Source: an uncultured Desulfobacteraceae bacterium
GTDB lineage: Bacteria; Desulfobacterota; Desulfobacteria; Desulfobacterales; JAABSP01
DNA length: 64,000 bases
Reading direction: 5' to 3'
NCBI GenBank assembly: GCA_964431545.1
Contig: CAYSLC010000003.1
Span: 449-64,448, forward strand
This document shows positions 1-17,118 of the stretch, one piece after another. The number at the start of each line of letters is the position of its first letter. Positions within the stretch are counted from its first letter, which is position 1. Below the pieces are notes generated by a model. It ran no database searches, had not been told where the DNA came from, and saw only the letters and a list, made by a program, of their open reading frames with translations. The translations under genes were made by a program, and so were the position numbers.

Positions 1-105
1 ATCGATCTCCCGGGCGATGTGGGGAAAGAAGAATTCCATGAATTCCTGGAAATAAGCGCTCAGGATTTCTTTCCAGGGGCTGTCGTAGTCGTCTCGATTT
101 ACCAT
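1..105 (-). CDS. N-terminus of an Rpn-like/transposase_31-type 'DYDSPWKE' protein, running off the window edge
   Basis: Minus-strand ATG at 105 gives MVNRDDYDSPWKEILSAYFQEFMEFFFPHIAREID. The DYDSPWKE..YF.EF..FFFP motif is the typical N-terminus of this family. Not in the ORF track. Confidence 0.6.
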   Translation of the reverse strand, partial: MVNRDDYDSPWKEILSAYFQEFMEFFFPHIAREID

Positions 106-329
106 TGAATTGGGCTGATTTCCATATCCAGACCTTCGGGTTTCCAGCGAAAACGCCATTCTTTGAACCATTATAGAATCGGCCGTCGTCTCCGTCAATC
201 TTTTCGACATCTTTTGACAGCCGATTACACCGCCCTTTCCGCTTGTCTTCGGCGGCGCGTCCCGATGACGTCCACCACCGCCTCCCGCAAGGGCCGACGG
301 CGAGCGCGGTGGCTGGAGATGGACGGGCG

Positions 330-1544
330 TTAGGCCGCCCCCTGCTTCCAATTGATGAAGACCCCCGCGATGAGGGAAACGAAACCCACGAATATGAGCA
401 TGATCCCCCATTCGATCTGACTGTGGGGGCCGTTCCATATCCAGAGAACCAGGATTCCCAGGCACAGGGGGACCAGGGCCGCTATCAGCCGGAAATAGAA
501 GCCGACCACCACCAGCGCGGATACCGCCAGAACGCTCAGCCCCATTCCCGGCTGGGGAAACGGATACCGGTGCCAGCCCAGGGTTGACAGTGCCAGATAA
601 AAGGCAATGACGGCACCGACATAGAGCCGGTACCGATGCTGTTCCCATCCCTTCAGCAAAAAGGTGGTTCCGGAAAACAGGGCGGTGATCCAGAAAAGCT
701 GCGGTCGGGTCAGGGATACCGCCATTGCGATGGCAAGGCTCATCCATGTACTCTCCTCTCTTTCCGAAAGACCCGGCACAAAGGAGAGGATCACGAGAAA
801 CGGCGATAGATGGGCGATATTGACGCGGATATCCAGAACCGGCAGCCATGATCCGAACAGGTGGTAGAGATATGCCCCGGCCCATATCAGCCATGCGGCT
901 TTGACCGAACGGTCCAGAACGGTCTTGCCCCAGTCATCGAGATCATCCTCATCCGCCACGGCTGTCGGGAACCAGAGGACGGCAAACGCGAGGGCCGCGC
1001 CGTACCATGTCAGAAGATAATGCGCCGTCAGCGCCGTATCCGGGCTGCCGATATTGGCTTTTACGATATAGGGCGCGATCCCCACCCCGAGCGCGGCAAG
1101 GACCGGAATGGAAAAAAAACGGGGCGACGCCTTCAGACGGAAAATCCACGTCAATGCCTTCAGCTTCAGCGCGAATACCGCGATCCAGAGGAAGGTCCAG
1201 AGTGGGCCGTAAGCGGCAAAGGAGAGGTGTTCGGTCTGGAAGGTCAGATCGAAGATCAGTACGACTTCGATCAGGCCGAGGATCACCGCCGGACGGCGCT
1301 GCCCGGTTTTCCGGTAGAGGATGAAACTCCCCGCCAGCAAGAGGATTTCATACAGTTCGATGACGCCGGTCAGCAGGACCTGGCCGTCCATGAACAGGTG
1401 CCGTTGAACCTGGGGGATCCGGGTCAACCCCCTGGATACGAGGAAGACGCCGAAGATGAAGCATAAGGCACTGAAAAAATACAGGGGATTGTAAAGGACA
1501 AAGCACCGGTGCAATTGGGATTTGAATCGACCATTGAGATCCAT
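330..1544 (-). CDS. Uncharacterised polytopic membrane protein (~404 aa)
   Basis: The ORF 330..1631 has an AGGAGG RBS before ATG 1544 (MDLNGRF). About 12 hydrophobic segments. No family recognised. Confidence 0.75.
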   Translation of the reverse strand: MDLNGRFKSQLHRCFVLYNPLYFFSALCFIFGVFLVSRGLTRIPQVQRHLFMDGQVLLTGVIELYEILLLAGSFILYRKTGQRRPAVILGLIEVVLIFDLTFQTEHLSFAAYGPLWTFLWIAVFALKLKALTWIFRLKASPRFFSIPVLAALGVGIAPYIVKANIGSPDTALTAHYLLTWYGAALAFAVLWFPTAVADEDDLDDWGKTVLDRSVKAAWLIWAGAYLYHLFGSWLPVLDIRVNIAHLSPFLVILSFVPGLSEREESTWMSLAIAMAVSLTRPQLFWITALFSGTTFLLKGWEQHRYRLYVGAVIAFYLALSTLGWHRYPFPQPGMGLSVLAVSALVVVGFYFRLIAALVPLCLGILVLWIWNGPHSQIEWGIMLIFVGFVSLIAGVFINWKQGAA

Positions 1545-2049
1545 TTTGCCACCTCCTGGGTTGGTTGAGGATGATCGGATGTTTCTCACCTTTCCGGGTC
1601 CCAGCATATCGGGGCAAAAGGGGCAAATCAAGGAGAAAAACCAATATATTATATATATTTCAGTAGTTTATCAAGTGTTCCCCCATCTTTCGCCGTCTTT
1701 CATTTGGCCTCTCGGGGAAACTTTGGAAAAGTATGGAAAAGTCGGCGGCCGTCTACGGCGGCAAAACCCTTTCCATTCAATAATCCGGCGCTTCTTCCAT
1801 GCCGGGCGGGAAAAATTGCAAATTCGGGGTGCCGGACCCGCAGGCGTAGGTCCGGACCCTGGAAATGATTTTCGGCGAAAACGGGAATGGGGCCGGGACG
1901 AAACGGGGCGGCCCAATGTCGCCAGTTTAGCGGAACAACGGCGAAGACGTCACATCAGGTGGCGGATCTCGAGCCCTCCCATAACCTCGGGAGCATTACC
2001 CGTTTCTGAATCAGAAAGAACCAAGCCCGGACGATGCCTTTGGTCGGCA

Positions 2050-2093
2050 TCCGTCAAAGACCTCCGAGGTTTCAAAAACCATAGAGGTCTGGG
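2050..2093. repeat. Dispersed 44-bp palindromic repeat, copy 1
   Basis: TCCGTCAAAGACCTCCGAGGTTTCAAAAACCATAGAGGTCTGGG matches the reverse complement of 56599-56642 at 40/44 positions. Confidence 0.75.
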
Positions 2094-2174
2094 AGTTCCG
2101 CGCTTTCCTGTGACGGTTTCTGGTTTCCGCCAGTGGAACTGGGATTTCCCTTCAAGGGGATGCCGGGTCCAGAA

Positions 2175-2367
2175 AGCCCTGAAAGGGCGCCACATACCAG
2201 CCCAGGGCCAACGCCCTGGGACCAATGGTATTACGGTATAAGCCCTGAAAGGGCGTGACATCGAACCTTGGAGCCCTCGTTGATGTGACGCCCTTTCAGG
2301 GCTCGACGGGTTGTCACGCCGTACCCAGGGCGTTGCCCGTGGGCTGGTATGTATAACCCCGTTGGGG
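2175..2367. repeat. Nested REP-like palindromic cluster (GCCCTGAAAGGGC type)
   Basis: Inner arms 2241-2262 and 2282-2303 are 21/22 complementary. Outer arms 2175-2220 and 2324-2367 (CCCAGGGC..ACGCCCTGGG) are imperfectly complementary. Confidence 0.75.
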
Positions 2368-2771
2368 TATCCCTCCGAACGGAATTCTTCTCATGATATG
2401 CGGTCCCAGGAGCATTATCCATTTCTGAATCAGCAAAAACTTACTATCCACCAACCGTTCCTCGCAACCGAATCCTGGGTAAGGTGGAAATCAAGAAACG
2501 GGTAATGCTCCCAGTATCGACTGTTTCTTGTAGCCGCTGAAAACCCAAAAAGATAAAGCTTGAGTCCAAAGGCCGATCGATGTATGTCTGATGGATAGAA
2601 AAGCCATGCCGAGAAAGGTGTTTATCAACCTTGCGAATGATAGGATAATAGTGTAGATTGTTCCTACATAAAGGCTGTCGGCTTGGGTTTTGGAACCCAT
2701 CGATTTTAAAATGGATCGCCATAAGGGCGACTTCGCCGACGGCCATCGCCGGAAGGGGAATTTGACTCGTA

Positions 2772-3146
2772 ATGAAAGAGGAATTCCTGGAGAAAGCAAA
2801 GGAAAATCTCCAGTCCGCTGGAATCTGCTTCGAAAATGGTCTCTATAACGCCTGCGCGAACCGCGCCTATTACGCCGCATTTCAATCAGCCGTTTCAGCG
2901 CTCGCCGATCGGGGCATCACAAAAGAGAAGATCGAACATAAATGGGTTCAGGCTGAATTCAACGGCAGACTGATTGGGAAGCAAAAAGTGTATCCAGGTG
3001 GGATGAAATCCTATTTGATGAAAATGCAAACAGTCAGGGATCAGGCTGATTATTCCCACCAGAACGTGAATAAAAAGACCGCCCGGCGGCAAATCGGCAG
3101 AGCCGGCGAAATTGTCGCTTCGGTGGAAAAGGTACTGAAAAAATGA
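2772..3146 (+). CDS. HEPN domain protein (UPF0332-like), putative toxin
   Basis: LEKAKENL..A...YNACANRAYYAAF N-terminus and an R-x4-Y (RDQADY) motif. Confidence 0.85.
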   Translation: MKEEFLEKAKENLQSAGICFENGLYNACANRAYYAAFQSAVSALADRGITKEKIEHKWVQAEFNGRLIGKQKVYPGGMKSYLMKMQTVRDQADYSHQNVNKKTARRQIGRAGEIVASVEKVLKK

Positions 3147-3397
3147 TAAATTTTAAGCAGGAAGAGCTGATTCAGGAGCTAATGGCCCAGATCAGGGAAG
3201 AATTTCCAGAGGTTAATTTGATCAGCATCGTGGAACACCCTGAAGACCCGGAATCTTTATGGATCAACGTCACGGCGCCGGATGATGAAGACCGGGAGAT
3301 GGACCTGATCGAATTCGCAGGCGACAAGATCACGGATATCCTTCTGGACTATGGTTATCACATGCTGGTCATGCCCGTGCGAAAGAAAGCCGCATAA
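3143..3397 (+). CDS. Small acidic HEPN partner protein (MNT-like/putative antitoxin)
   Basis: 84 aa with an ATGA overlap onto the HEPN gene. Size and alpha/beta pattern resemble minimal nucleotidyltransferases, but there is no GS-x-DxD motif. Confidence 0.65.
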   Translation: MINFKQEELIQELMAQIREEFPEVNLISIVEHPEDPESLWINVTAPDDEDREMDLIEFAGDKITDILLDYGYHMLVMPVRKKAA

Positions 3398-3479
3398 ACC
3401 GCTGTGCAGCGCACCCCAGTCCATTCCAAACGAGAAGGGCGGACCAAAGAATTGAAATCGGTTTGGCCAAAAAACTGAC

Positions 3480-3590
3480 CAGTTGCTCATATCCGTCTGG
3501 AATATAAACGACGAGACTTGCAAGCCAGCCGATGGCGTCGAAGATTTTTTCGAACCTGCTTTTTCCGGATTGATATACGACCTTGGCCGA
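3480..3590 (-). pseudogene. IS91-family (Y2) transposase C-terminal remnant
   Basis: KVVYQSGKSRFEKIFDAIGWLASLVVYIPDGYEQLV resembles the KVVY.SK....K.FDALEWLA....HIP..GEQMV segment of IS91-type transposases. Confidence 0.55.
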
Positions 3591-3672
3591 GCCGAATGCC
3601 GTCTCCATGGGGCCGAAGTTGGTGAAATCCAGTCAGCCGCGCCCACCTTTTTCTCCGCCTTTGAGTAACGTC

Positions 3673-4086
3673 AGACGCCGGTTCAACCTCGCCTCCCGGA
3701 TAGAGGGAGCCAACAGACGGTACGGTACAGAGCTGATGATCTCCGAGGCGACCCTTCGGTCCCTGACCCCCGGAACCTTCCGGACCCGGATCCTGGACGT
3801 GGTCCGGGTGAAAGGGAAGTCCGAGGCGGTGCGGGTCCATGAGGTCTATGGATGGGAGGGGGACGGGATGGATCGGTCCGGGGAGACCTATTTCGAAACC
3901 TACGCGGCCGCCTTCGAGGCGTACCTCGCCGGGGATTTCGCATCCGCCCTCCGGGTCTTCCGGGAGGCCCTCTCCCTGAAGCCGGTGGATCCCGCCGCCG
4001 GGGAGATGATCCGGCGGATCGAATCGATCGATCCCGATGATCTTCCCCCGGACTGGGACGGCGCCGTCCGGTTGACGACCAAATAG
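3673..4086 (+). pseudogene. 5'-truncated class III adenylate/guanylate cyclase (C-terminal part only)
   Basis: NLASRIEGANRRYGTELMISE...RVKGK plus the TPR-like tail (WDGAVRLTTK). The catalytic N-terminal half of the cyclase domain is absent. Confidence 0.8.
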
Positions 4087-4173
4087 GCACCGGCAGCGTC
4101 GTCCGGCCTGCGGCGAGGTCGCCACCACCCCCTTGAAACGCACCCGGAACAGCACCGCGCAAAGCATCGGCAC
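4005..4173. repeat. Left copy of a ~170-bp imperfect direct repeat (cyclase 3' end + RND permease 3' end)
   Basis: Aligns by eye with 9352-9525. It contains the cyclase stop and a VPMLCAVLFRVRFKG copy of the RND C-terminus (VPVLYAVLFRLRFKG). Confidence 0.85.
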
Positions 4174-4272
4174 AAAGCCGTCGGGGAGGTTCGAGGCGGG
4201 AGAGCCGAACGGTATCGGGATCTCGGGGAGGTTGAGGCGGCAGGTGTGCTCCATTTTTTTCCTGTTCCGCTT

Positions 4273-5901
4273 TTACACCGGCTGTTCCGGGTCGGCAACA
4301 GGATCCGTTTCCACAAAAATCGGCGCAACGCTGACGCCGGAAGCGTCATCGTGATAAACAGCCGCCAGTCGTTGGCGGTTCTCTTTGTCGATGGTCTCGA
4401 TGAAAAAAATCAAATAAATCCGGTCCAGTCCCAATTGCACTGCGTATTTCGCGGCTCGGGAGAGGGCCTCGTGATAAGCATAGCGATCCTTGAAGGATTT
4501 CAGTTCAAGCGCGTACAGCACTTTCCCATATTGGATCAAGAGGTCGATTTTCCCGTTTCCTGTTGGAAACTCAGGAAAAACATAACCTCCTTTGTCCCGG
4601 AAAAATGCGTCAAGGTACATGTACAGATTGAAATGAAACACGGCTTCATAGATCCGCAGATCGGTTTTTCTCCGGGGCGCGTTCTTGAAAAGCCAGTCCC
4701 GGTTCTGAACAAGGTATTGCCGATACAATCGCATCAGCGCGGGGATATCGATTGAATCTCCCTTCACGACCGCTTCGATATCCGTCATGGGATCATACAG
4801 GTGATCCATGGTCCGGAAAATTTCCCGGGAAAAATAATTGAACAACCGTTTCTGCACAAAGGGGCTTGAGAATCGAACCGCGTTTTCGGTTCTGCTGATC
4901 TTTTCCCGGTCGATTACGCCGTTCATATACAGGAAATTTTGCAGTGGATCGTCGAACCGGAACGGCAGGATCTCCCTTGTTTTGAACAGCTCTAAAACCG
5001 TCCCCTTGTAAGGTTCCCGTCGAGCCTTGCTGATCATGTTCAGGACGTTGTTGTTGGGCAGCGCGCTCACCGCATCCGCGAAAACCATTTCAAAATCGTC
5101 CGGGGAAACGGGCCGGCTGCGATCCGGCGCATACCCTTCGTATCCTTCCGTCACCAATTCTCCGAACCAGGAAACCAGGCCGGGCTGACCTCGGGTTTCT
5201 TTGTAAATGCGTTCAACGACGACGGGGTCCACATGCTGCCCGCTTTCGTTTTCATACCATTGGAACATGGACTGGACTTCTTCAAAGGTCAGATTGGGAA
5301 TATGCAGGCTCCGCTGGACATTGAACGGAGAGCCTGTCACGTTTTCAATGCCAAGAACGCTTCTGACGCCGATGAGCGCGAGTCGGTGCAGACTCACGGC
5401 GCTTTCAAGACCGGGCGCCCCGGACGCCATCTGGCGTGTGATATAAATATCTCTGAATTCATTGGCGAATTTATTGATAAATGTTTCGTCGAGGGCATCG
5501 AATTCATCGATGGCCAATATCAGCGGTTTTTCAAAATAGCGATCCGAAAACAGATGCCGCAGATCTTTCCAGGCCGCGACCGGCCGAAAGTCCATGGCAA
5601 ACCATTCCGCCAGCTTTTCTACAAACAGTTCAAGAACGCCCCTGTCCGTCGTCTCGGTCTTGGCCGACTGCATGCTGATGAGGCCGACCTCGAACGATCC
5701 GGTCTCTCTGATCCTCCCGACCACTTCCCGCATCAACCCTGTTTTCCCGCACTGGCGAGGCGCCCAGACCGTGACGTAATGTCCGCCTTCATCCGGCGTT
5801 TCACCCGTCAGTCGAGCAAGGGTTTTCTCCACCAGTTCCGTCCGGGGAACGTAGTAGTGACGGTTTTTATTGACGGGACCATAGGATGAAAACTTCCGCA
5901 T
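4273..5901 (-). CDS. AAA-like (AAA_35-type) NTPase with C-terminal PD-(D/E)XK nuclease domain
   Basis: Start MRKFSSYGP with RBS AAGGAG. Walker A APRQCGKT, Walker B IDEFD, C-terminal PEFPTGNGKIDLLI...ALELK. Confidence 0.85.
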   Translation of the reverse strand: MRKFSSYGPVNKNRHYYVPRTELVEKTLARLTGETPDEGGHYVTVWAPRQCGKTGLMREVVGRIRETGSFEVGLISMQSAKTETTDRGVLELFVEKLAEWFAMDFRPVAAWKDLRHLFSDRYFEKPLILAIDEFDALDETFINKFANEFRDIYITRQMASGAPGLESAVSLHRLALIGVRSVLGIENVTGSPFNVQRSLHIPNLTFEEVQSMFQWYENESGQHVDPVVVERIYKETRGQPGLVSWFGELVTEGYEGYAPDRSRPVSPDDFEMVFADAVSALPNNNVLNMISKARREPYKGTVLELFKTREILPFRFDDPLQNFLYMNGVIDREKISRTENAVRFSSPFVQKRLFNYFSREIFRTMDHLYDPMTDIEAVVKGDSIDIPALMRLYRQYLVQNRDWLFKNAPRRKTDLRIYEAVFHFNLYMYLDAFFRDKGGYVFPEFPTGNGKIDLLIQYGKVLYALELKSFKDRYAYHEALSRAAKYAVQLGLDRIYLIFFIETIDKENRQRLAAVYHDDASGVSVAPIFVETDPVADPEQPV

Positions 5902-6086
5902 GGCACGCTCCTTGGTTCGTTTAACAAGCGGCATACACCGTCGGCAAAAATTCGGTGTCACCGATCAGGCGATGGACGGGTCGCTTGCCGGACAATGCCT
6001 CGCCGTTTTCCATGATGATGCGGACGCCTTCGCCGCGCTTTGTCCATGAGGGTTCGGCGGCCGGTGTCGACCCCGGACGACGCCGC

Positions 6087-7469
6087 CTATCCGCCCGCGG
6101 ATCGCAGAACCCGGGCGGTGGCATCCAGGTTGTCTCTCTCGGCCCAGTCCAGGGCGGTCATGCCCCTTTCGTCCTTTCCATTCACGTCGGCGCCGTATCG
6201 CAGCAAGAGCTTGACCATCTTATGTCTCCGCCACCGCACGGCCATGATCAGCGGCGTTTCTCCGCGCACCCCGCTATGGTGGTTGACGTTCGCCCCGGCC
6301 CGGATGCTCATCTCCACGCACTTGGCGTTTTGGCCGTACACGGAATTGGCGAGGAGACTGTTTGCATCGTATGACCGCCCCGGCGACATCATCAGTTTGC
6401 CCATCAGCTCCGCATGGCCGTGACTGGCGGCGTTACACAGGCCGCGGCCGAAAGCCTGGTCCCCCGTCTGTCCCGCCAAGGCCAGGGCGATGTCCGTGTT
6501 TCCGGACTTGCATGAATTGATAAACGCCTTTTCCACGTCGTTTTTTTCCGCTTGCGGCATCAGGGCGCGTGCGCGCCTCAAGTCTCCTCTTTCCACGGCC
6601 GCCTCCATTTCCCAGGAGATGTTTCGACCGCCGCCGGACCGCAGAAGCTCCGCCGTCTCCGAGCCTTGCCGCGCCGCTTTCAAGGCGTGGTCGATGGCGG
6701 CATTGGGAACACCCCGCGCCAGGATCAACTCCACCTTCTCGGTGTCGCCCCGGCCCCGACCCGCCGCCGTGCGAAGGGCGTCGGAAAGAATCACCGGATG
6801 GGGGTTGTCCGCCATCAGCATGCGGAAAATCTTCATGTTCGGTTTTCCCGCCGCGATGGAGAGGGGATGGGTGCTGTCCCAGACGTCCACCGCGTCCAGG
6901 CCGCCGGACACCGCCTTTCTGACGTTCACGTCCCCGCCGCCTTCGAGAAGCATCCGCACCATATCCACATCCTGGTTCCGCACCGCGACGGAGAGGACCG
7001 TGGGTGAGGAAGGCCGTACTATATATATACCGGTATGGTTGGTCGGCGGCGGGTAAAAAATGAACCCATTGGGATCCGCCCCGGCCCGGACCAACTCCCG
7101 CGCCTTTTCCAGGTCTTTCGCCGTTACCGCGCGGAGAAGCTTATGGGTCGGGGTTCCTTCCCGGTATCCCTTGGCCGCGCGGTCGAGCTTGAATTGATCC
7201 ATCTCCGCACCGGACAACGTCTTCCGCTCTTCCTCCCGGATTATCTCCTGGACCTGGCTCTGGTGGAAACTCATGGTCCCGCCGCCGCGGACGCATTTGA
7301 CCATGCTTCCCTCCTTCCAGATGCCGCTTGCCTCAACCCGCCGCCCGTTTTTCAGGACCAGCACGTCCGCGTGGGCGAAGGCGGCCGTGAGCAGAACCGC
7401 CGCCGCAACCGCCCCTATGTAACGCCGCAAACCAGCGCGGAAGGGATTGGCGTCCGTCCGTCTCGTCAT
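6087..7469 (-). CDS. Exported ankyrin-repeat protein
   Basis: RBS GGAGG before ATG 7469. Signal-like AVAAAVLLTAAFAHA. Ankyrin repeats (TVLSVAVRNQDVDMVRMLLEGG; ETPLIMAV..MVKLLLRYGADVNGKDERGMTALDWA). Confidence 0.85.
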   Translation of the reverse strand: MTRRTDANPFRAGLRRYIGAVAAAVLLTAAFAHADVLVLKNGRRVEASGIWKEGSMVKCVRGGGTMSFHQSQVQEIIREEERKTLSGAEMDQFKLDRAAKGYREGTPTHKLLRAVTAKDLEKARELVRAGADPNGFIFYPPPTNHTGIYIVRPSSPTVLSVAVRNQDVDMVRMLLEGGGDVNVRKAVSGGLDAVDVWDSTHPLSIAAGKPNMKIFRMLMADNPHPVILSDALRTAAGRGRGDTEKVELILARGVPNAAIDHALKAARQGSETAELLRSGGGRNISWEMEAAVERGDLRRARALMPQAEKNDVEKAFINSCKSGNTDIALALAGQTGDQAFGRGLCNAASHGHAELMGKLMMSPGRSYDANSLLANSVYGQNAKCVEMSIRAGANVNHHSGVRGETPLIMAVRWRRHKMVKLLLRYGADVNGKDERGMTALDWAERDNLDATARVLRSAGG

Positions 7470-7559
7470 ATGAAATTCTCCTCCAATAAAAAGTCCACAT
7501 AACATTTCTCAAACCAACATTTTGGTTAACGACACTACATAAAAACTCGCTTTTTGTCG

Positions 7560-7585
7560 ACGAAAATGCAACGAAAATGCAACGA
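7560..7585. promoter_or_regulatory. 11-bp tandem direct repeat upstream of the ankyrin gene (possible regulator site)
   Basis: ACGAAAATGCA x2 + ACGA, about 90 bp upstream of ATG 7469 in an AT-rich intergenic stretch. Confidence 0.3.
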
Positions 7586-7742
7586 GGTTTTCAAATGTGC
7601 TTCGTCGCGTCGGATTGCATCCCTCCACGGCTACGGCATATTGCGGTCGATGGGACGCGAGCCGGCGGTAAGGCTGCATGGCATAGGCGAATGGTCAAAG
7701 ATCGGCAAGGGATTGAACCAGTTTGGCAAAAAAACCAAGGCA

Positions 7743-9284
7743 CTAAGAAGCATCAATGGGATATCCGCCGTTGCTCGGCCTCCCGAATACCGTGGGGATG
7801 ATGTCGGTGATGATCCGCTTTCCGTCGATGATCTCTTCGGTGTGGATTTCATCGGCCTCGGTATGCTTGCGGCTAAAAACGACATAGAAACCTTCTTCCA
7901 GCCCCTCCGAAGCCAGATATGCGGCCAGTTGGCGCTTTCCCCGGTCGAAATAGTGCCGGTCCGTGTAGATCTTGGTTTCGATGACGTGCTTCTGATCTTT
8001 GTGCAGGATCAGGATGTCGGTTCTTCCCCGGCCCGAGGGAACCTCGATGAGGGTCTGTCCCCCGAGGCGTTCGATGAAAAAGTTGATGAAGCTGTCCAGG
8101 CTATAGTGCCAGGCGGCCTCTTTGAGGTTTTCGGTGTCGAATGCGCGGAAGCCTCTTCTGCGGACGTACTCCCGGTATCTTTTCAGAATGGCGCGGATGT
8201 TGAGAACCCCTTGGCTCACATATTCGGAAAAGGTGTCGTGCGCGGAGACATAGTGCTGGTGTTCGTCGTTGAAGAGCGGCTGGAATGCGGTGATCAGCCG
8301 TTTTGCATAGATCGGAACCGGTATGGCCACATTATCATCCACATTCTCCACAACACCGTTGGCATACAAATATGCGATGTCCGGATCATCCACCGTGAAG
8401 GGAACCGGTTCTTCCATGAACAGCAGCCGAAACATGAAAGGCTTTTTTGTGCGGGCCTTTTGCACGATGTTGATGATGTTTTTGTCAAACTTGCGCGTCA
8501 GATAGTGTTTCAAGGTTTTGTAGAAATCATCCATTTGGACCGGCTTTGAACGATCCGTCGCCACCGCATCCGTCAGATGCTCGCAGATGCCGCAGACAAG
8601 GCCGGGCTGCCCTTTTGTGTTTTCGTGGATGGCTTCGATCACATCGGCTGCAAAAGGCTGTCCCGATTCGGCCTCATACTGGCCGATGAGATCCTCGATT
8701 TCTTCGAAGGTGAAGTAGGGAAGCGTCAGCTCATCCGCGACATTGAAGGGCGAGGCATGGGAGACCACCAATTCCGCGAGGGTGCTGACGCCCACGAGGA
8801 TCATCGCCCGGAGGCAGTGGTCTCCTTTTTGATGGTAGAGCTTTCGGAAGGCGTGCATCAGCTCGCCCATGACGATATCGGGAATGCCCTCGAATTCGTC
8901 GATGATCAGAACAAGCGGATCGATCAGGGGCTCCAGTTCCTCGAAAAAGATCCCGAGGCTCACCTGACTGTTGACGGGAAGATCGAGAAAGACGCCGAAT
9001 TCCTTGATCCTTCGCTTCAACTGCCGGGAGAAATCGAGGTAGAACTCCTCCCGGGTCGCGGTCTTCAGATGCTCGAAGCTGACCCATATGGGGGTATAGG
9101 GCTCCTTTTTGAGTTCTTGGATCAGCAGTTGAAAGTAGGTGGTCTTGCCGGACTGGCGGGGCGCGAAGATGGTGAAGTAGCGGCCCCGCTCCACTTTGCG
9201 GCGGCCCTTTTCCATCAGCTTCTCCCGCAGGACGGTGTAGTGTTCGGCCGGGTTGCAGGGGCCGGTTGTGTTGAAATAGCGCAT
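7743..9284 (-). CDS. AAA-like NTPase with C-terminal PD-(D/E)XK nuclease domain (paralogue of 4273..5901)
   Basis: MRYFNTTGPC..HY N-terminus, Walker A APRQSGKT, Walker B IDEFE, C-terminal IEVPSGRGRTDILI...VIETK. Confidence 0.88.
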   Translation of the reverse strand: MRYFNTTGPCNPAEHYTVLREKLMEKGRRKVERGRYFTIFAPRQSGKTTYFQLLIQELKKEPYTPIWVSFEHLKTATREEFYLDFSRQLKRRIKEFGVFLDLPVNSQVSLGIFFEELEPLIDPLVLIIDEFEGIPDIVMGELMHAFRKLYHQKGDHCLRAMILVGVSTLAELVVSHASPFNVADELTLPYFTFEEIEDLIGQYEAESGQPFAADVIEAIHENTKGQPGLVCGICEHLTDAVATDRSKPVQMDDFYKTLKHYLTRKFDKNIINIVQKARTKKPFMFRLLFMEEPVPFTVDDPDIAYLYANGVVENVDDNVAIPVPIYAKRLITAFQPLFNDEHQHYVSAHDTFSEYVSQGVLNIRAILKRYREYVRRRGFRAFDTENLKEAAWHYSLDSFINFFIERLGGQTLIEVPSGRGRTDILILHKDQKHVIETKIYTDRHYFDRGKRQLAAYLASEGLEEGFYVVFSRKHTEADEIHTEEIIDGKRIITDIIPTVFGRPSNGGYPIDAS

Positions 9285-9351
9285 ATGTTTCTCCGATCGC
9301 TGTTTTTGTTCCCAAACATTTTTTCCGCGTTGGCGGAAACCCCGACGAAGG

Positions 9352-9525
9352 GATGATCCGGCGGATCGAATCGATCGATCCCGGCGGTCTTCCCCCGGAT
9401 TGGGACGTCGCCGTCCGGTTGACCACCAAATAGCCGCCGACGGGCGTCCTCCGGCCTCCGCTACGGGGAGGTCGCCGTCACCCCTTGAAACGCAACCGGA
9501 ACAGCACCGCGTAGAGCACCGGCAC
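9352..9525. repeat. Right copy of the ~170-bp imperfect direct repeat
   Basis: Carries a copy of the cyclase 3' end (MIRRIESIDPGGLPPDWDVAVRLTTK*) followed by the true RND permease 3' end. Confidence 0.85.
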
Positions 9526-12500
9526 CACCCCCAGGGTCAGGAGGGTGGCGAAGAGGAGCCCGGCGATGATGGCGACGGCCATGGGTTTCCACATGGCGCC
9601 GCCGCCGAAGTAGAGGGGGGCCATGCCGAAGGCGGTGGTGGCGGTGGTGAGCAGGATGGGCCGCATCCGCCGCTGGGCCGCCTCGATGACGGCCTTGGGG
9701 GGATCGAGGTGGTTCTCGGTGATCTCCAGGTGGATCCGCTCCAGGAGCACGATGGCGTTGTTGATGACGATCCCGGAGAGGGAGACGATGCCGAGCAGGG
9801 TCATGAAGCCGAAGTAGAGGCCCGTGGCGAAGAGCCCCAGGACCACGCCGATGAACCCCAGGGGGATGGTGATGAGGATGATGGCGGGCCGGCGAAGGGA
9901 GTTGAACTGGATCACCAGGAGCATGACGATGATGAACCCGGCCACGGGGAGGTTGACCATGATCGACGCATTGGCGTCCCGGGAGGTCTCGGCCTCGCCC
10001 CCCAGTTCGTAGCGGTAGCCCACCCCCCAGCCTTCGCTCTCCTTGTCCAGCCATGGAACCACCTCGGTTGTCACCTGGCTGGCGGTGACGCCGGGATCGA
10101 GATCGGTGTGGACGGTCACCGTCTTGAGCCGGTTCTTCCGGATGATCTTGGGGGGCTGCCATTCAACCTCGATGTCGGCCACCTGGAGCAGGGGCACCGA
10201 TTCCCCGGTGGCCTGGACATGGACATTGAGCCCCCTCAGGTTGGCCACGTCCCGCCGGTCCGCGGCCACCGACCGGAGGACCACCGGGATGATGTCGTCC
10301 CCCTCCCGGTAGTCGGTCACCTCCATGCCGCTCAGGCCCGTCTGGAGGGAGACGGCGATGTCCCGGCTGGTGACCCCGGCCCGCAGGGCCCGGGGCTGAT
10401 CGACCTTCACCACGATCTTCTTGGTGCGCCGCCCCCAGTCGTCGCCGATGTTCCGGGTCCCCGGCGTCTCGGCCAGCTTCCGCTTGACCCGGTCCGCGAT
10501 GTCGAAGACCCGGTCGGTCTCCCGGCCGATGATCCGGATCTCCACCGGGTACTCGATGGGGGGGCCGTTTTCGATCTTCTTGAGGATCAGGTCCACGTCG
10601 GGGAAGTGGCCCGCCACATGGGCCTCCAGCCGGGCCATGGTCCGGTCCATGGCGGCGACGGAGGTGTTGTCCACCACCATGAGGGCGTACTCGGGGCTGC
10701 TCACCTCCGGGGTGTGCTGGAGGACGAATCGCGGCCCGCCCTCCCCGACGTAGGTGACCCAGTGGGTGACCCCGCCCTCCCCTTCGGCGCTTTCCCCCCT
10801 TCCATTCTTCCCCTTTGCCATGAGTTCCCGCTCCATGAATTCCTCGATCTCGATCACCGTCGCCTCGGTCGCCTCGATGGCCGTGCCCATGGGCAGGTGG
10901 ATCTCGGCCTTGAAATAGGTCCGCTCGGAGGGGGGAAAGAAGATCACCGGCAGGTATCGGGTGGAGAAGAGGGTCAACCCGAAGAGGAGGGCCACCAGGG
11001 TCAGGGTGATCCACCGGTGGCGGAGGGCCAGGAGCAGCCCCCGGCGGTAGCCGCGATGGAAGCGGGTGTTGTGGGACTCCTTGCCCGCCGTCGGCTTCGG
11101 CTTCAGGAACTTGACGCAGAGCAATGGGATCATGGTCAGGGCCAGGACCCACGAGGAGAGCAGCGTGATGGCGACCACCTTGAAGAGCGGCGCGGTGTAT
11201 TCCCCGGTGTCCGACTCCGCCAGGTAGATGGGGAGAAACGCCGCCGCCGTGGTGAGGGAGGAGGTGAGCAGGGGCACCACCAGCTCTCCGGCCGAGGAGA
11301 CCGCCGCCTCCACCGCCTTTCTTCCGGAGGCGATCTCCACCATGATCGACTCGCTCATGACGATGGCGTTGTCCACCAGCATCCCCAGGGCGATGATGAG
11401 CGACGCCAGGGACATCTGGTCGAGGCCGATGCCGAGGTAGTACATGATCAGCATCGCCATGAGGATGGTCATGGGGATCAGGGTGGCCACCAGCAGGCCG
11501 GTGCGGATGCCGAGGGTGAGGAGCATCACCGCCATGACCACGGCGATGGCCTGGAGGAGGTTGTTCCGGAACTCCACCACCTTCCGGTCCACCTCCCGGG
11601 GCTGGAAGGTGGTCTTGACAAAGTCGACCCCGTAGGGATAGGCGGTCCGGAGCCGGTCCAGCAGGGCGTTCACGGCGTCGCCCAGGGCCATGAGGTTGCC
11701 CCCCTCCCGCATGGAGACGGCCAGGGCCAGGGCCGGCTCCCCGGAGACCCGCATCTTCGACCGGGGCGGGTCGATGTATCCCCGGCGGATCTCCACCAGA
11801 TCCCCCAGGTAGAGGACCTCGCCGGTGCGGGGGAGACGGATGACGGCCCGCCGCATCTCGTCCACCGACTCGAAGTTTCCCGACGGCTCCACCACGATCC
11901 GCTCGGTGTCGATCTCCACGGCCCCGCCGGGGATGATGATGTTCCGGCTCTCCAGGATCGCCATGAGGTTGGCGGGAGAGAGGTTCAGGTCGGCCAGCCG
12001 GGCGTTCCGGTACTCCATGAAGACCCGCTCCGCCTGGGCCCCCAAAATCTTCACCTTGGCCGCGTTCTCCAGCAGGAGGAGTTCATCCCTGACCTCGTCG
12101 GCCACCGTCTTGAGTTCCGCGTAGGAGAACCCCTCGCCGGTGACGCCGATGATGATGCCGTAGACATCCCCGAACTCGTCGTCCACGAAGGGGCCGACCA
12201 CCCCGTCGGGGAGGTCCGGCACGGCCCGGTCGACCTTGCGCCGGAGGCTGTCCCAGATGGGCCGCATCTCGGTGTACCGTTCCAGGACGTGGGCGAAGAC
12301 GATGGAGACGCCGTTCTTCGACTGGCTCTCCACGTAGTCGAGTTCCGGGATCTCCTGGATCGTCTTCTCCAGCTTGTCGGTGACGAGCCGCTCCACCCGC
12401 TCGGGTCCGGCGCCGGGAAAGTAGGTGATCACCTGGGCGATCCGGACCGTGAATCCGGGGTCGTAGTCCCGGGGAAGGCTGAAATAGGCGTAGAAGCCGC

Positions 12501-12570
12501 CCACCAGGACGATCAGCAGCGCCACGGCGGTGACCCGGTCATTTTCGATGGCCCGGCGGGTGAGATTCAT
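9478..12570 (-). CDS. RND efflux permease (AcrB/AcrD/AcrF family)
   Basis: 1030 aa with ALGMLVDNAIV, GIVINNAIVLL and RPILLTT motifs and a 12-TM/two-periplasmic-loop layout. Confidence 0.95.
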   Translation of the reverse strand: MNLTRRAIENDRVTAVALLIVLVGGFYAYFSLPRDYDPGFTVRIAQVITYFPGAGPERVERLVTDKLEKTIQEIPELDYVESQSKNGVSIVFAHVLERYTEMRPIWDSLRRKVDRAVPDLPDGVVGPFVDDEFGDVYGIIIGVTGEGFSYAELKTVADEVRDELLLLENAAKVKILGAQAERVFMEYRNARLADLNLSPANLMAILESRNIIIPGGAVEIDTERIVVEPSGNFESVDEMRRAVIRLPRTGEVLYLGDLVEIRRGYIDPPRSKMRVSGEPALALAVSMREGGNLMALGDAVNALLDRLRTAYPYGVDFVKTTFQPREVDRKVVEFRNNLLQAIAVVMAVMLLTLGIRTGLLVATLIPMTILMAMLIMYYLGIGLDQMSLASLIIALGMLVDNAIVMSESIMVEIASGRKAVEAAVSSAGELVVPLLTSSLTTAAAFLPIYLAESDTGEYTAPLFKVVAITLLSSWVLALTMIPLLCVKFLKPKPTAGKESHNTRFHRGYRRGLLLALRHRWITLTLVALLFGLTLFSTRYLPVIFFPPSERTYFKAEIHLPMGTAIEATEATVIEIEEFMERELMAKGKNGRGESAEGEGGVTHWVTYVGEGGPRFVLQHTPEVSSPEYALMVVDNTSVAAMDRTMARLEAHVAGHFPDVDLILKKIENGPPIEYPVEIRIIGRETDRVFDIADRVKRKLAETPGTRNIGDDWGRRTKKIVVKVDQPRALRAGVTSRDIAVSLQTGLSGMEVTDYREGDDIIPVVLRSVAADRRDVANLRGLNVHVQATGESVPLLQVADIEVEWQPPKIIRKNRLKTVTVHTDLDPGVTASQVTTEVVPWLDKESEGWGVGYRYELGGEAETSRDANASIMVNLPVAGFIIVMLLVIQFNSLRRPAIILITIPLGFIGVVLGLFATGLYFGFMTLLGIVSLSGIVINNAIVLLERIHLEITENHLDPPKAVIEAAQRRMRPILLTTATTAFGMAPLYFGGGAMWKPMAVAIIAGLLFATLLTLGVVPVLYAVLFRLRFKG

Positions 12571-12577
12571 GGGCCGG

Positions 12578-13756
12578 TCATTTCTCCGTCAGCTTGACCC
12601 GGCGGCCCTCATCCAGGCGGCTGATGCCGGCGGTGACCAGGAGATCCCCGTCGGAGAGCCCCGATTCGATGGCAAGCCCCTCGGGGGTGATCTCCCCCAC
12701 GGTCACCGGCCGCCGATGGACCACCCCGGTCCCGTCCTCCGACGGCGTCACGGTGTAGACGAACCGGCCGTCCCGGTCCTCCCCCACGGCCACGGTGGGC
12801 ACCATGATCCGTTTCTCGGCATCCCCCTGTTCGACGGCGAACCGGACCTCGGCGGCCATGCCCGGCCGGATCTCCGGGCGGGGCTCGGCCAGGGCCACCG
12901 TCACGGGAAAGGTGGTCTCCGCCCCGGTGGCCGACACCCCCACCTCGGTGGTCACCGCGTCGAAGCGCCGGTCCGGGAGGGCGTCGAAGACCACCGTGGC
13001 CGGCTCCCCTTCCCGGAGCCGGGAGATGATCCCCTCTGGCACGGCCACCCGGACCTCGATCCGGTCCCCGCAGGTGACCGTGGCCACGGGTTGACCGGGC
13101 CCCACGTTCTCGTTCTCCTCCACGGCCACCGCCGCCACGGCGCAGTCGTCCCGGGGGACGGCGAGCCGGGTGTAGCCGAGCTGCCTCCGGGCCAGGGCCA
13201 ACTGCTTTCGGATGGACCGGACCGCCGCCTTGGAGGACTCCGCCGCGGCCCGGGCCGCGTCCAGGTCGTTGCGCGAGGCGTTCCGGTTCTCGTAGAGGGC
13301 CCGGACCCGCTCGTAGGCGGCGGCGGCGTTCCGGGCCTCGGCCTCGGCCCGGGCCAGGGACGCCTCGGCCTCCTGGACCCGGAGGGCGAAGTCGGCCGGG
13401 TCGAGCCGGGCGATGAGATCCCCCCGGTCCGCCCGGTCCCCCACCGCCACCAGGACCTCCTCGATGGTCCCGCCCACCTTGAAGCTCAGAACGGACGCCA
13501 CGGCGGCCCGGGCCGTGCCGGCAAAGGCCCGAACCGTCGGCCCGGCCGAACCGGAGACCCTCACATACCGGACCGGGCGCAGGGCCGGCTCCGTCTTGGC
13601 CGGGGGCTCATCTCCGCAGCCGAGGGCGAGGAGGAGGCACAAGATGGCTTTCCATGTCCAGGTGATCGTGTCGTTTTGGAATAATTTCAAAGTGGTCTTC
13701 CGTTGAGATCCTCGATCAATTTCTCCATATTTTTGTTGACAAAGGGCGGCTTCCAA
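12578..13756 (-). CDS. RND periplasmic adaptor (membrane fusion protein); true start probably near 13690
   Basis: Lipoprotein-like LLLALGC, LSFKVGGTI..V.V..GD.V..GD.IARLD, coiled-coil, RPGM. Directly upstream of the permease. Confidence 0.9.
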   Translation of the reverse strand: MEAALCQQKYGEIDRGSQRKTTLKLFQNDTITWTWKAILCLLLALGCGDEPPAKTEPALRPVRYVRVSGSAGPTVRAFAGTARAAVASVLSFKVGGTIEEVLVAVGDRADRGDLIARLDPADFALRVQEAEASLARAEAEARNAAAAYERVRALYENRNASRNDLDAARAAAESSKAAVRSIRKQLALARRQLGYTRLAVPRDDCAVAAVAVEENENVGPGQPVATVTCGDRIEVRVAVPEGIISRLREGEPATVVFDALPDRRFDAVTTEVGVSATGAETTFPVTVALAEPRPEIRPGMAAEVRFAVEQGDAEKRIMVPTVAVGEDRDGRFVYTVTPSEDGTGVVHRRPVTVGEITPEGLAIESGLSDGDLLVTAGISRLDEGRRVKLTEK

Positions 13757-13821
13757 TTTAGCAATCTTGGATAGCGGATTTCAGATGATTTTTCAATGGT
13801 CCGGAGCCCCCGGAGAGTCTC

Positions 13822-15093
13822 ATGATCAAACAGTTCTCGTTTCACAACTGGAAAAGCTTCCAACAGGCCGATCTTCACATCGATCCCCTGACGGTGTTGA
13901 TCGGCGCCAACGCCAGCGGAAAATCCAACGCCATCGACGCCCTGGCATTCCTGCACAGATTGGCTTCGGGCATCAACCTGACCCCCGCTCTCGCCGGAGA
14001 CGCCAACCTTCCCGCCATCCGGGGGGGACTGGAATGGGCGGCGCTGAAACCACGGACATCGGAATTTACCCTGGAGTCCGTCATCTCCGGAACCGCCGAA
14101 CGGACGGATTACCATTATTCGATCACCATTTCCGTCGGAAACGGCCAGTGCCTACTGAAAGCGGAATCGATCAAACGGTTGAAATACCGCCCCACCAAGC
14201 GAAATCAACAGGCCGGAAAACCCTATGAAATCTTCCTATATCGAACCGACCCCTGCGATGGGGAAAGCCCTTCGATCACCGCAAGACTATACAATGAAAA
14301 GATGGGATCTCCAAGGCCGGCCTCCCGAACGAATGCGATCCTGACGCAGCTTGCCGCCCAAAACCTCCGAAGGGAGATCGCGGAAGGCATTGACGAGGTC
14401 AAAAGGGGACTCGGAAACATCTTTATCCTCGATCCCATTCCAGCACACATGCGGGACTACAAACCGTTTTCGGACCGGATGGAGACCGACGCGGCCAACA
14501 TCGCCGGAGTCATCGCCGCCCTGCCCCAAGATCAGAAAGCCAAAATGGAACAAACATTGACGGATTATGTCCGTCACCTTCCGGAGAGAGATATCCGAAA
14601 GGTCTGGGCCGAGCCGGTGGGGAAATTCCAATCGGATGCCATGCTCTATTGCCTGGAGTCATGGAAGGCCGATGATGAATCGACGCTGGTCGACGCGCGA
14701 GGCATGTCGGACGGGACGCTTCGCTTTCTCGCCATCTTGACCGCGCTTCAAACCCGCCCCTCCGGCAGTCTGCTGGTGGTGGAAGAGATCGACAATGGGC
14801 TGCACCCTTCCCGCGCGTTGCTGATCGTTCGGATGCTTCGGGAAATCGGGAAATCCCGGGCCGTCGACGTTCTGGCCACCACTCATAATCCTACCCTGCT
14901 CGACGCGTTGGGGGCCGGGATCGTCCCCTTCGTCACCATCTCCCATCGGGATATCTCCTCCGGCTTCAGCAAACTGACGCTCTTGGAGGATTTGAAACAA
15001 TTGCCGAAACTTCTGGCATACGGACCGGTCGGCAAGCTTGTTTCACGGGGCATGATCGAGGACGCGCTCAAGGCCGAGCCGGACCATGCATAG
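13822..15093 (+). CDS. ABC-type ATPase (AAA_21/AbiEii-like)
   Basis: Walker A GANASGKS, signature MSDGT, Walker B/D-loop VVEEIDNGLHP, H-loop TTHNP. No transmembrane partner. Confidence 0.9.
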   Translation: MIKQFSFHNWKSFQQADLHIDPLTVLIGANASGKSNAIDALAFLHRLASGINLTPALAGDANLPAIRGGLEWAALKPRTSEFTLESVISGTAERTDYHYSITISVGNGQCLLKAESIKRLKYRPTKRNQQAGKPYEIFLYRTDPCDGESPSITARLYNEKMGSPRPASRTNAILTQLAAQNLRREIAEGIDEVKRGLGNIFILDPIPAHMRDYKPFSDRMETDAANIAGVIAALPQDQKAKMEQTLTDYVRHLPERDIRKVWAEPVGKFQSDAMLYCLESWKADDESTLVDARGMSDGTLRFLAILTALQTRPSGSLLVVEEIDNGLHPSRALLIVRMLREIGKSRAVDVLATTHNPTLLDALGAGIVPFVTISHRDISSGFSKLTLLEDLKQLPKLLAYGPVGKLVSRGMIEDALKAEPDHA

Positions 15094-15598
15094 GGTGATG
15101 ATTTTCGATACCTCCGTACTCTGCGTCTGGCTCAGGGTGCCTGGGAAAGAGAGTTGCGGCCCGGCGGATGACCGTTGGGATGAAGCCCGCATCCAATGCC
15201 TGATCGACGAAGAGGAGCGGAAAAAAAGCACCTTCGTCCTCCCCCTGGCGGCCATCATCGAAACCGGCAACCATATCAGTCAGGCACCCCGCCACCGACA
15301 CGAGGCCGCGACTCGATTGGCCGGAATCATCCTCAAGGCGGCCGACGCCGCGTCGCCATGGGCCGCGTTTACGGAGCAGGCCGCCCTGTGGGAACCCGGA
15401 AATCTGAAAGACCTCGCGACATCCTGGCCTCCCCTTGCGGCCCAGGGGCTGTCCATCGGGGATGCGACCATACGGGACGTGGCTGAATACTACGCAAACA
15501 TCGGTGCCCGTGTGATCATATTGACCGGTGACAAAGGATTGAAATCCCATGAGCCGGCGAAACCGATCCCTGAGCCGCGTCGCCGGCGAAGGCAATAG
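15086..15598 (+). CDS. PIN-fold protein coupled to the ABC ATPase
   Basis: FDTSVL, IETGNHI, SIGDATI and LTGDKGL supply the four PIN acidic positions. Overlaps the ATPase gene by 8 bp. Confidence 0.75.
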   Translation: MHRVMIFDTSVLCVWLRVPGKESCGPADDRWDEARIQCLIDEEERKKSTFVLPLAAIIETGNHISQAPRHRHEAATRLAGIILKAADAASPWAAFTEQAALWEPGNLKDLATSWPPLAAQGLSIGDATIRDVAEYYANIGARVIILTGDKGLKSHEPAKPIPEPRRRRRQ

Positions 15599-15672
15599 TT
15601 CAATTCCGCCGATCTCCCGCCCCTCAAGCGAATAAGCTTCGGATTACATCGATAAAAAACACTTTCCATCTG

Positions 15673-17118
15673 CTACCACTCCCCCGAAGCCTCGATCCAC
15701 TCGGCGAGGGTCGGCGGATCGGGGAGGCAGGCCGAGACCGGCTTCCACTGGCACTGGGCATTGAGTTCCACGCCCTCCTGGATCAGGGAGACGGGCCGGT
15801 CCGCCGAGACGACCACCACAACGATGCCCCGGTGCTCGGCGGTGAAGCGGAGGGCGGAGTTGAACCGCGCCCCCCGGGCCCGGTCCTCCCCCCGGATCGA
15901 CCGGCCGTCCAGGAGGCAGGCGAAGCCGTGGAGCTTCAAGTCCGCGCCGATGTGGAGGGCGCCGTCCATCTTGGAGAGAGAGCGGGTGAGGGCCATGTAC
16001 CGGGGCTCCCGGAGATCGAGGGGCGCCTCCAGGGATTGGCCGGAAATCCCGATGGGCGGGTCGTTCAGGTCGATGACCAGGGTGCAGCCGTGCTTCATCT
16101 CCTCGGCGCTGTGGACGAGTTTGAGGACAATCTGGAAGAGGCCGTGCTGCCGGTCGGAAGGGATCCCCGACTCCAGGAGGAGTTCCTCCAACTCCACCAG
16201 CTTCGCCTTGCGGGTGGAGGAGTGGAACCGCCCGTCAAAGAAGGAGCAGACGCGGTTTCCGTTGGCGCTCAGAAATCCGTGGGCGCCCCGGAAATGGGCG
16301 GTGATCCGCCCCCTGGGCATCTTCCCGGCGGCGATGCCCACGATGCACCGGCCGTCGGAGACGAGACTGCACCCGGGCCGTTCCACCGCCGTCAACAGCT
16401 TCCGGACGTGCTTGAAGTTGTCGAGGTTGGGCCGCTCCTCCGGGGGAAACCGGGTGAGGAAGGTCAGCTCCGTCAGGGCGGCCGGCGGGACGAAGACCAG
16501 GGCGCCCAGGGGCCACTCCCCCTCCTCCAGGGTTTTGGAGATCCTGAGCACGGCGTCGAGGATGGGGTAGTTGCGCATGTGGACGTCCATGCCGAGGATC
16601 CGGTTCATCTCGTCGACGATGTGGTCCCGGACGGCGTGGGTGGCGTATTCCTGGAGGACATACCCGGAGGTGCCCAGATAGCAGGAGTTTTCAGAGGTCA
16701 TGTCGTGAGCCAGGAGCCACGCCGCGTGCTCCAGCCACCGTTCGGTGGGACCGGTGGCGCACATATCCGGATGGTGCTCGGTGAACCAGATCTGGTAGAA
16801 GACCGCATCGGACCACCCCCCGAAGGAGATCAACCCCGCCAGACCCAGGTTCTTCTCGGGATAGGGGTGACCGTACCGGCTCATGTCCGATGGGGGCGGC
16901 GCCTGGGTCCGCCACCGGTCGGATTCGATGTAGAGTTCCTTGAGCTTGGGTTCGTGCCCCCGCAGCAGGTTCTGGGGGTCATGGATCCGCATGGGTCCTT
17001 CCGGGTTCACCGCATAGATCACCGCGGCCCGGCTGGGGCCGGAAAAGTGAGACAGTCCGTCCCGGAGCCCTTCATAGATGTGGAAGGCGCACAGCTTGCG
17101 GATCAATGGGTCGACCAC
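15673..17118 (-). CDS. DisA_N/DAC-domain protein with long N-terminal sensor-like region (deltaproteobacterial type)
   Basis: C-terminal HGCTLVID...KMDGALHIG..L.GFACLLDG...RGARFNSA. GTG start. Confidence 0.85.
   Translation of the reverse strand: MVDPLIRKLCAFHIYEGLRDGLSHFSGPSRAAVIYAVNPEGPMRIHDPQNLLRGHEPKLKELYIESDRWRTQAPPPSDMSRYGHPYPEKNLGLAGLISFGGWSDAVFYQIWFTEHHPDMCATGPTERWLEHAAWLLAHDMTSENSCYLGTSGYVLQEYATHAVRDHIVDEMNRILGMDVHMRNYPILDAVLRISKTLEEGEWPLGALVFVPPAALTELTFLTRFPPEERPNLDNFKHVRKLLTAVERPGCSLVSDGRCIVGIAAGKMPRGRITAHFRGAHGFLSANGNRVCSFFDGRFHSSTRKAKLVELEELLLESGIPSDRQHGLFQIVLKLVHSAEEMKHGCTLVIDLNDPPIGISGQSLEAPLDLREPRYMALTRSLSKMDGALHIGADLKLHGFACLLDGRSIRGEDRARGARFNSALRFTAEHRGIVVVVVSADRPVSLIQEGVELNAQCQWKPVSACLPDPPTLAEWIEASGEW

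Follow-up and report, generated by a model that had tools for sequence, protein, structure and literature searches.

A foreign gene mosaic between long direct repeats at a tail-to-tail cyclase/RND junction in a Desulfobacteraceae genome

Introduction

How can several kilobases of foreign DNA come to lie between two copies of the same gene junction when no recombinase gene accompanies them? The question is raised by a 64,000-nt stretch of DNA (the window) on contig CAYSLC010000003.1 of an uncultured Desulfobacteraceae bacterium (assembly GCA_964431545.1). Here, a 5.2-kb insert of three minus-strand open reading frames (ORFs) is flanked by direct repeats of ~190 bp, each carrying the junction at which a CHASE2/class III cyclase gene and an RND permease gene meet tail to tail. 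A preliminary description of the window had proposed that the insert entered by homologous or site-specific recombination of a circle bearing a related version of this junction, and that the junction is a variable defence hotspot. We consider instead, giving the idea an even chance of being right, that a foreign mosaic was inserted at the junction with long target duplication and without a dedicated recombinase.

Two diverged copies of a convergent gene junction

The repeats and the gene ends that they contain are as follows.

3995-4092 and 9342-9439, direct: repeat block 1, 88% identity
4108-4131 and 9461-9484, direct: repeat block 2, 83% identity
4129-4198 and 9481-9550, direct: repeat block 3, 77% identity
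~3995-4180, no strand: left repeat copy of ~190 bp, with cyclase end, spacer and RND-end fragment
~9342-9532, no strand: right repeat copy of ~190 bp, the direct-repeat partner of the left copy
3683-4086, plus strand: decapitated CHASE2/class III cyclase 3′ fragment of ~135 codons, its stop kept at 4084-4086
4129-4179, minus strand: RND 3′-end fragment, consisting of 12 codons LCAVLFRVRFKG (4129-4164) and a 15-nt microhomology zone (4165-4179), from a three-way alignment with the real RND end and the related locus L022 (see below)
9342-9433, plus strand: orphan cyclase 3′ fragment of ~28 codons plus stop, from translation of the right copy
9478-12570, minus strand: intact RND permease of the AcrB family, 1030 aa (Pfam ACR_tran, E 4.5e-156)

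The three blocks found by the repeat finder are collinear, with a spacing of 5347-5353 nt. Aligning the two copies, a check that the preliminary description had itself proposed, joined them in one gapped BLAST match of 85.1% identity over 175 nt (E 4e-49 against the whole 6-Mb assembly). The imperfect direct repeats placed earlier at 4005-4173 and 9352-9525 are real, with slightly wider limits, and no third full copy is present in the genome by whole-assembly BLAST. Translation likewise agrees with the earlier count of ~26 cyclase and ~15 RND codons: each copy holds the last ~28 codons of the cyclase, the intergenic spacer and the last ~12-17 codons of the RND permease.

In the left copy, the plus-strand cyclase frame ends in …EMIRRIESIDPDDLPPDWDGAVRLTTK with the stop TAG at 4084-4086, followed by a spacer of ~42 nt and the RND-like LCAVLFRVRFKG on the minus strand, where a 1-nt insertion has removed the stop codon. 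The right copy has a cyclase-type end, …GMIRRIESIDPGGLPPDWDVAVRLTTK (written 'MIRRIESIDPGGLPPDWDVAVRLTTK*'), with its stop at 9431-9433, and the true RND permease end (…VLYAVLFRLRFKG) with its stop at 9478-9480. The longest run identical between the copies is the partly palindromic 33-nt block GATGATCCGGCGGATCGAATCGATCGATCCCG. No terminal inverted repeats were detected at the boundaries by the repeat finder. A terminator hairpin conserved in the duplicated spacer was considered and rejected, as the spacers fold no better than shuffled sequences (z = 0 and -0.2).

The genome is a 466-contig metagenome-assembled genome (MAG) with 4.3% contamination, the window lying on its contig C3, and only the left part of the arrangement has independent support; a chimera of co-occurring strains therefore had to be weighed. 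A metagenome scan with a 27-nt repeat core recovered a single contig of 1374 nt, which covers the left arm only. This independent contig from the JGI collection, JGI12109J20283_10485339, reproduces window positions 2805-4178 at 99.7%, so the left arrangement recurs outside the MAG. The two copies are 85% identical and share no identical run longer than 33 nt, which is not enough to merge paths in a k=55 assembly graph. Both also lie in a single contig, each between flanks that are unique on either side. With 15% divergence between the copies, those flanks and the JGI match, we regard an assembly artefact, which the preliminary description had named as a refutation of its own proposal, as very improbable. 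The JGI contig ends at 4178, a few bases from the inner edge of the left repeat; this end could represent an alternative allele or, equally, graph branching from related AAA1 loci (see below) in the same sample.

Foreign origin and mosaic structure of the insert

The genes and gene fragments between the repeats are listed below.

4273-5961, minus strand: AAA1, an AAA_35 ATPase (Pfam E 1.7e-10) with a C-terminal PD-(D/E)XK-like region
6087-7505, minus strand: ankyrin-repeat protein (Pfam Ank_2, E 2e-21, at the C-terminal residues 391-467)
7743-9284, minus strand: AAA2, a second AAA_35 ATPase (Pfam E 6.6e-13), 31% identical to AAA1
4165-6073, minus strand: block B1, comprising hydrolase stub, AAA1 and HATPase_c_4 3′ stub, 89.7% nucleotide identity to L022
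5962-6073, minus strand: decayed HATPase_c_4 3′ stub of about 110 nt with a 1-nt indel, from alignment with L022:2622-3410 and Pfam
4180-4254, minus strand: nucleoside-hydrolase 5′ stub joined to the RND fragment, ~27 codons long and with two 1-nt indels, from alignment with L022:5076-6017

A scan for AAA1 orthologues, using one genome per species, identified two at 89% and 87% amino acid identity, in the loci L022 and L023 of Desulfobacteraceae MAGs (G008 and G005) that belong to a different genus of the same family. The DNA of L022 matches window positions 4165-6073 at 89.7% over 1910 nt, non-coding flanks included, while the match of L023 is confined to the AAA1 gene itself. The other L022 genes have only 30-74% amino acid matches in the genome under study, two of them without any match at the DNA level, which argues that the block moved horizontally relatively recently. 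These alignments establish B1 as foreign DNA, evidently acquired by horizontal transfer.

In L022, AAA1 is preceded by a HATPase_c_4 gene (L022:2622-3410) and followed by a gene for a 313-aa nucleoside hydrolase (PF01156; L022:5076-6017). Stubs of both genes are found at the ends of B1, and the hydrolase stub is ~88% identical at the nucleotide level to L022, compared with only ~70% to the genome's own hydrolase on contig C275. Homology to L022 ends 14 nt past the ankyrin stop codon, and the ankyrin/AAA2 part is, by this alignment, a block distinct from B1. The insert is thus a patchwork with gene stubs at its block ends rather than a cassette with defined ends.

At the L023 locus, the flanks have been reduced relative to L022. 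The HATPase_c_4 and hydrolase genes are deleted to remnants of ~50 nt and ~69 nt (L023:2480-2660 and L023:4315-4383) and AAA1 is intact, so rearrangements recur beside AAA1 in separate lineages.

A microhomology joint at the left inner boundary

The three-way alignment follows the left copy along the L022 hydrolase up to …CCCGA.GGC.T.GTGCCG.TG and along the RND end from that motif on. The hydrolase (…EGVVPV…) and RND (…LGVVPV…) sequences have 14 of 16 nt in common at this point, including a perfect GTGCCGGTG. The left inner boundary is, on this alignment, evidently a microhomology joint that welds the hydrolase stub to about RND codon -13, and microhomology there points to illegitimate recombination rather than to homologous exchange at a pre-formed junction copy or an att site. 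Entry by clean homologous or site-specific recombination, as first proposed, is at odds with a joint placed within a truncated nucleoside-hydrolase gene that came with the cargo.

A version of the circle proposal could still apply as a second step, and we give it perhaps half the weight of our preferred reading. In this scheme, a circle carrying the cargo and a ~190-bp junction copy from a related strain would have integrated by a RecA-dependent, Campbell-type crossover, its repeats having been diverged from the start; its source would be an earlier insertion with long target duplication, released as a circle when the flanking repeats recombined. Single-crossover integration yields exactly the observed layout of cargo between direct repeats, accounts for 15% divergence without a long decay and could use the identical block GATGATCCGGCGGATCGAATCGATCGATCCCG, which is long enough for RecA pairing; a similar 'release and re-invade' life cycle has already been proposed for restriction-modification units (PMC2853133). 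However, the microhomology joint means that an illegitimate weld came first, so that the scheme merely adds a step. A 33-nt identical run is unremarkable at this divergence (by our estimate about 1 chance in 8). The left copy differs from the intact cyclase gene on contig C227 (see below) by ~12% inside the repeat and 10% outside it, with no crossover signature, and neither a circle nor a donor nor an empty site was found. The foreign cargo and the lack of a recombinase thus agree with the circle proposal, the left joint contradicts a homologous or site-specific entry, and a Campbell step is possible only as a secondary event.

Probable decay of gene ends on both sides

The left copy was said to keep the real cyclase end and the right copy the real RND end. 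Both ends are indeed complete, but the left cyclase is a 5′-truncated fragment and not a real gene. Its stop-to-stop frame (3574-4086) matches cyclases only from residue 37, at window position 3683, and covers the last ~135 of 736 codons; upstream of 3683 there is no cyclase homology. The sole intact close copy is a 736-aa CHASE2 plus Guanylate_cyc gene on C227, 84% identical at the amino acid and 89.7% at the nucleotide level. In the final ~80 nt that all three share, the two cyclase ends of the window are closer to one another than either is to the C227 sequence, which is the outlier.

Most of the coding differences between the repeats fall on the non-functional copy and at conserved residues. 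The orphan right cyclase end has non-conservative changes of DPDD to DPGG and WDG to WDV; a Y to C change and the lost stop codon add to these. Counted by hand, there are about six non-synonymous to three synonymous differences, a pattern that appears to suit pseudogene decay after duplication better than divergence between functional orthologues.

The truncated left fragment also admits a stepwise patchwork. Under this account, which we think unlikely, the right copy would be the resident junction with its cyclase destroyed down to 28 codons, and 3683-4180 would be an imported fragment of ~500 bp. This fragment would derive from the cyclase/RND junction of a related genome or from a paralogous one, and successive illegitimate joins would have added it, next to the other foreign blocks, to a variable region prone to rearrangement. 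The left fragment does have breakpoints at both ends, and the region is full of fragments with truncated genes at block ends (a HEPN module, the cyclase cut at 3683, the B1 stubs, Ank/AAA2), with accessory modules also beyond the RND operon. More independent events would nevertheless be required, together with the coincidence that a fragment of the very junction that is resident here was inserted 5 kb away from it and in matching orientation; no second cyclase/RND junction occurs elsewhere in the genome.

In the intact C227 cyclase itself, the last ~25 nt (L019 63-90 against window 4060-4086) are AT-richer and only ~63% identical to the window, compared with 90% for the preceding 380 nt; the drop hints at a recombination breakpoint near codon -8 of that gene.

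Absence of a recombinase gene

The statement that no integrase or transposase lies inside the cassette agrees with our searches. Pfam assigns neither an integrase nor a transposase domain to any of the three cargo ORFs, the contig C3 has no match to the tyrosine integrase PF00589, the genome has none to the IS91/Y2 transposase PF04986 at E<=1, and no tRNA gene lies in window positions 1-20000. A putative IS91 remnant at 3257-3670 and 3369-3632 was rejected, having neither a Pfam match at E<=1 nor a paralogue in the genome nor a PF04986 relative, as was a phage origin of the cargo, which has no relatives in viral contigs.

These results bear on the idea of a degenerate site-specific island, in which an integrase element would have brought replacement 3′ ends in its attP and later lost the integrase. 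Integrase-mediated islands typically duplicate the 3′ ends of their target genes, and the repeats have the 33-nt, partly palindromic core in common. Against this stand the lack of an integrase or a remnant of one in the 1-16 kb region or on the contig and the lack of a tRNA; the three genes fill the interval, leaving gaps of only 125 nt and 237 nt, and the inner boundary is a microhomology joint in a truncated housekeeping-type gene and is not of att type. Neither a tyrosine or serine recombinase gene at one end nor a tRNA/tmRNA gene or att core at both boundaries was found, and we consider such an island highly improbable. A DNA or composite transposon fits no better, there being no inverted repeats, no transposase and a duplication of ~190 bp.

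A proposed course of events

In the insertion with long target duplication that we favour, a linear foreign mosaic would have been joined at two points of the resident CHASE2-cyclase/RND tail-to-tail junction, at both of them by illegitimate, microhomology-mediated joining. If the two points lay ~190 bp apart and were used in reversed order, the insert would end up with a copy of the intervening stretch on each side, running from cyclase codon -28 through the spacer to about RND codon -13. Two sister chromosomes, or a template switch in repair or replication, would be needed for a double joint staggered in this way. The mosaic would have included at least one block from a relative of another genus, cut at random within that relative's neighbouring genes. 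The redundant ends, of the RND gene on the left and of the cyclase on the right, would subsequently have degenerated as pseudogenes until the repeats were 85% identical, and a separate rearrangement may have stripped the first ~600 cyclase codons.

Several observations weigh against this scheme. A fresh duplication starts at 100% identity, so 85% demands a long residence, and all three cargo ORFs are still open. The substitution count comprises nine sites only. The right inner joint, at about 9331-9342, is untraceable, as the two closest paralogues of AAA2 share no upstream homology, and the cargo and the right copy rest on one MAG contig. Finally, no genome with an empty site or alternative cargo was found, and a single copy of the target before the event is presumed: among 40 relatives and the two genomes with AAA1 orthologues (given as G041/G042) there was no orthologous cyclase/RND junction, the best RND match being 60% with no convergent cyclase downstream and the best cyclase match 58%.

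Comparison with known systems

The closest known class is the 'insertion with long target duplication', which was reported initially for restriction-modification genes of Helicobacter and afterwards across bacteria (Nobusato et al. 2000, Gene 259:99; Furuta, Abe and Kobayashi 2010, NAR 38:2428, PMC2853133). In published cases, the repeats measure 46-423 bp and frequently include a start or stop codon, and mobility genes are lacking (PMC2853133). The present locus resembles them in its few-kilobase foreign insert without transposase or integrase, its direct repeats (~190 bp) that are far longer than transposon target duplications, its target duplicated across gene ends and the nuclease-type genes in the cargo. 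Measured against the definition of Furuta 2010, the direct repeats exceed 30 bp, and the insert, at 5.2 kb, stays below the limit of 20 kb and neither contains nor adjoins a mobility gene. That definition also expects the insert to encode homologues of restriction and modification genes; these are absent, Pfam, NCBIfam and PADLOC revealing no methyltransferase or restriction-enzyme family in the cargo. In the published cases, the cargo is restriction-modification genes, most repeats are more than 90% identical and a sister genome has the site unoccupied. Here, the cargo consists of two AAA_35/PD-(D/E)XK ATPases and an ankyrin protein, the repeats are 85% identical, no unoccupied site was found in the genomes searched, and one microhomology joint can be read in a co-transferred stub.

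Other systems have parts of this layout in common. Random, gene-internal foreign fragments joined at 3-12-nt microhomologies without a dedicated recombinase are the mark of the homology-facilitated or double illegitimate recombination that is said to occur in naturally transformable bacteria (reportedly the work of de Vries and Wackernagel in 2002 and of Harms et al. in 2016). Those systems usually delete or replace resident DNA, whereas here ~190 bp were duplicated and no homologous anchor is evident. In complex class 1 integrons, the 3′-conserved segment is reportedly duplicated around ISCR1 and its cargo through homologous integration of a circle, as Toleman et al. are said to have set out in 2006. 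The likeness lies in cargo held between two partial direct copies of a resident segment and in the Campbell-type rescue, which resembles the circle proposal; however, such integrons need an IS91-like rolling-circle transposase beside the cargo, and here the segment 3369-3632 is without Pfam support and the genome without Y2_Tnp. Integrase islands with a replacement 3′ end are similar in that direct repeats restore the interrupted gene ends, but differ in having an integrase, a tRNA/tmRNA target and att-like boundaries.

No new mechanism is opened by this locus, which we read as a decayed example of a known, recombinase-free mode of insertion. Its value would lie in being a readable case of how such insertions build variable regions, and in illustrating one after long decay: the origin of one joint is visible as a 9-16-nt microhomology between a co-transferred stub and a target gene end, and a donor-type locus persists in a sister genus. 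If the assignment is right, the class is no longer limited to restriction-modification genes but takes in an uncharacterised, highly expanded ATPase-nuclease family of sulfate-reducer-type Desulfobacteraceae.

The cargo proteins and the defence hotspot

The AAA_35 family is expanded in these bacteria, with ~11 copies in the genome under study and 9 and 15 in two relatives. The true start of AAA1 is likely the ATG at 5934, and its neighbours in the protein atlas are uncharacterised proteins with AAA_35/DUF8371/PDDEXK_3. AAA2 has its best relatives at 69% (on the genome's own contig C100) and 67% (in G005). For the N-terminal ~400 aa of the ankyrin protein (window 6300-7505), 300 genomes of the order yielded no relative at E<=1e-20, and the genome itself gives only weak local matches. 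The guanine plus cytosine content is 52% for AAA1, 55% for AAA2 and 63% for the ankyrin gene, compared with 64% for the genome and 66-71% for the genes of the RND permease and its membrane-fusion partner; the low values of the two ATPase genes support a foreign origin of the cargo.

For the proposed defence hotspot we found no support: there is no sign of repeated use of the site or of a defence role, and no other AAA_35 locus examined is flanked by repeats. PADLOC gave no match for AAA1 and only E~0.005 for AAA2, and the ankyrin protein matches the candidate PDC-M72A through its ankyrin repeats only; PADLOC and NCBIfam thus yield no convincing defence assignment for the cargo. Around the other ~10 AAA_35 paralogues and at 13 loci in relatives, no repeat flanks were found, only tandem paralogue arrays.

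Neighbouring genes and dispersed repeats

Three further features lie around the junction.

2772-3397: HEPN pair, the block having its closest matches at only 65-74%
12578-13756: membrane-fusion partner of the RND permease (HlyD_3)
13822-15598: PDC-M07 candidate pair, on the far side of the RND operon

The wider neighbourhood looks like a variable region, which we take as context only and not as evidence that the junction is a reusable landing pad.

Contig C227, otherwise unique in the assembly, stops 15 nt past the cyclase stop codon, inside the first 55 nt of a dispersed repeat resembling a miniature inverted-repeat transposable element (MITE). The same 55 nt recur without change at window positions 1988-2042 and in a copy close to the right-hand end of C3. 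The MITE-like element (window 1988-2512) is a modular dispersed repeat in which at least eight contigs end (C227, C68, C47, C168, C345, C159, C108, C120), and several contigs overlap it by an exact 52-55 nt, as expected of a k=55 assembly graph; it is therefore a main cause of assembly breaks.

If C227 joins the MITE-like element of the window, the order would be intact cyclase, MITE/HEPN insert, 135-codon end, AAA/ankyrin insert, 28-codon end and RND. The cyclase 3′ end would then be a repeatedly used landing site, with two nested long-target-duplication insertions at one gene end, a notion that we regard as a long shot. Were it true, the nested insertions might be driven by the PD-(D/E)XK nuclease-ATPases, as Kobayashi proposed for restriction enzymes.

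At the related locus L022, a pair of an AAA_21 ABC-type ATPase and DUF4276 (L022:316-2398) adjoins AAA1, a defence-island-like context. In G005 and G008, many AAA_35 paralogues have their start 150-400 nt from the beginning of a contig, which suggests that a repeat lies upstream. In another genome (loci L033/L035, on G096:C265), two tandem AAA_35 copies contain stretches that are 96-97% identical.

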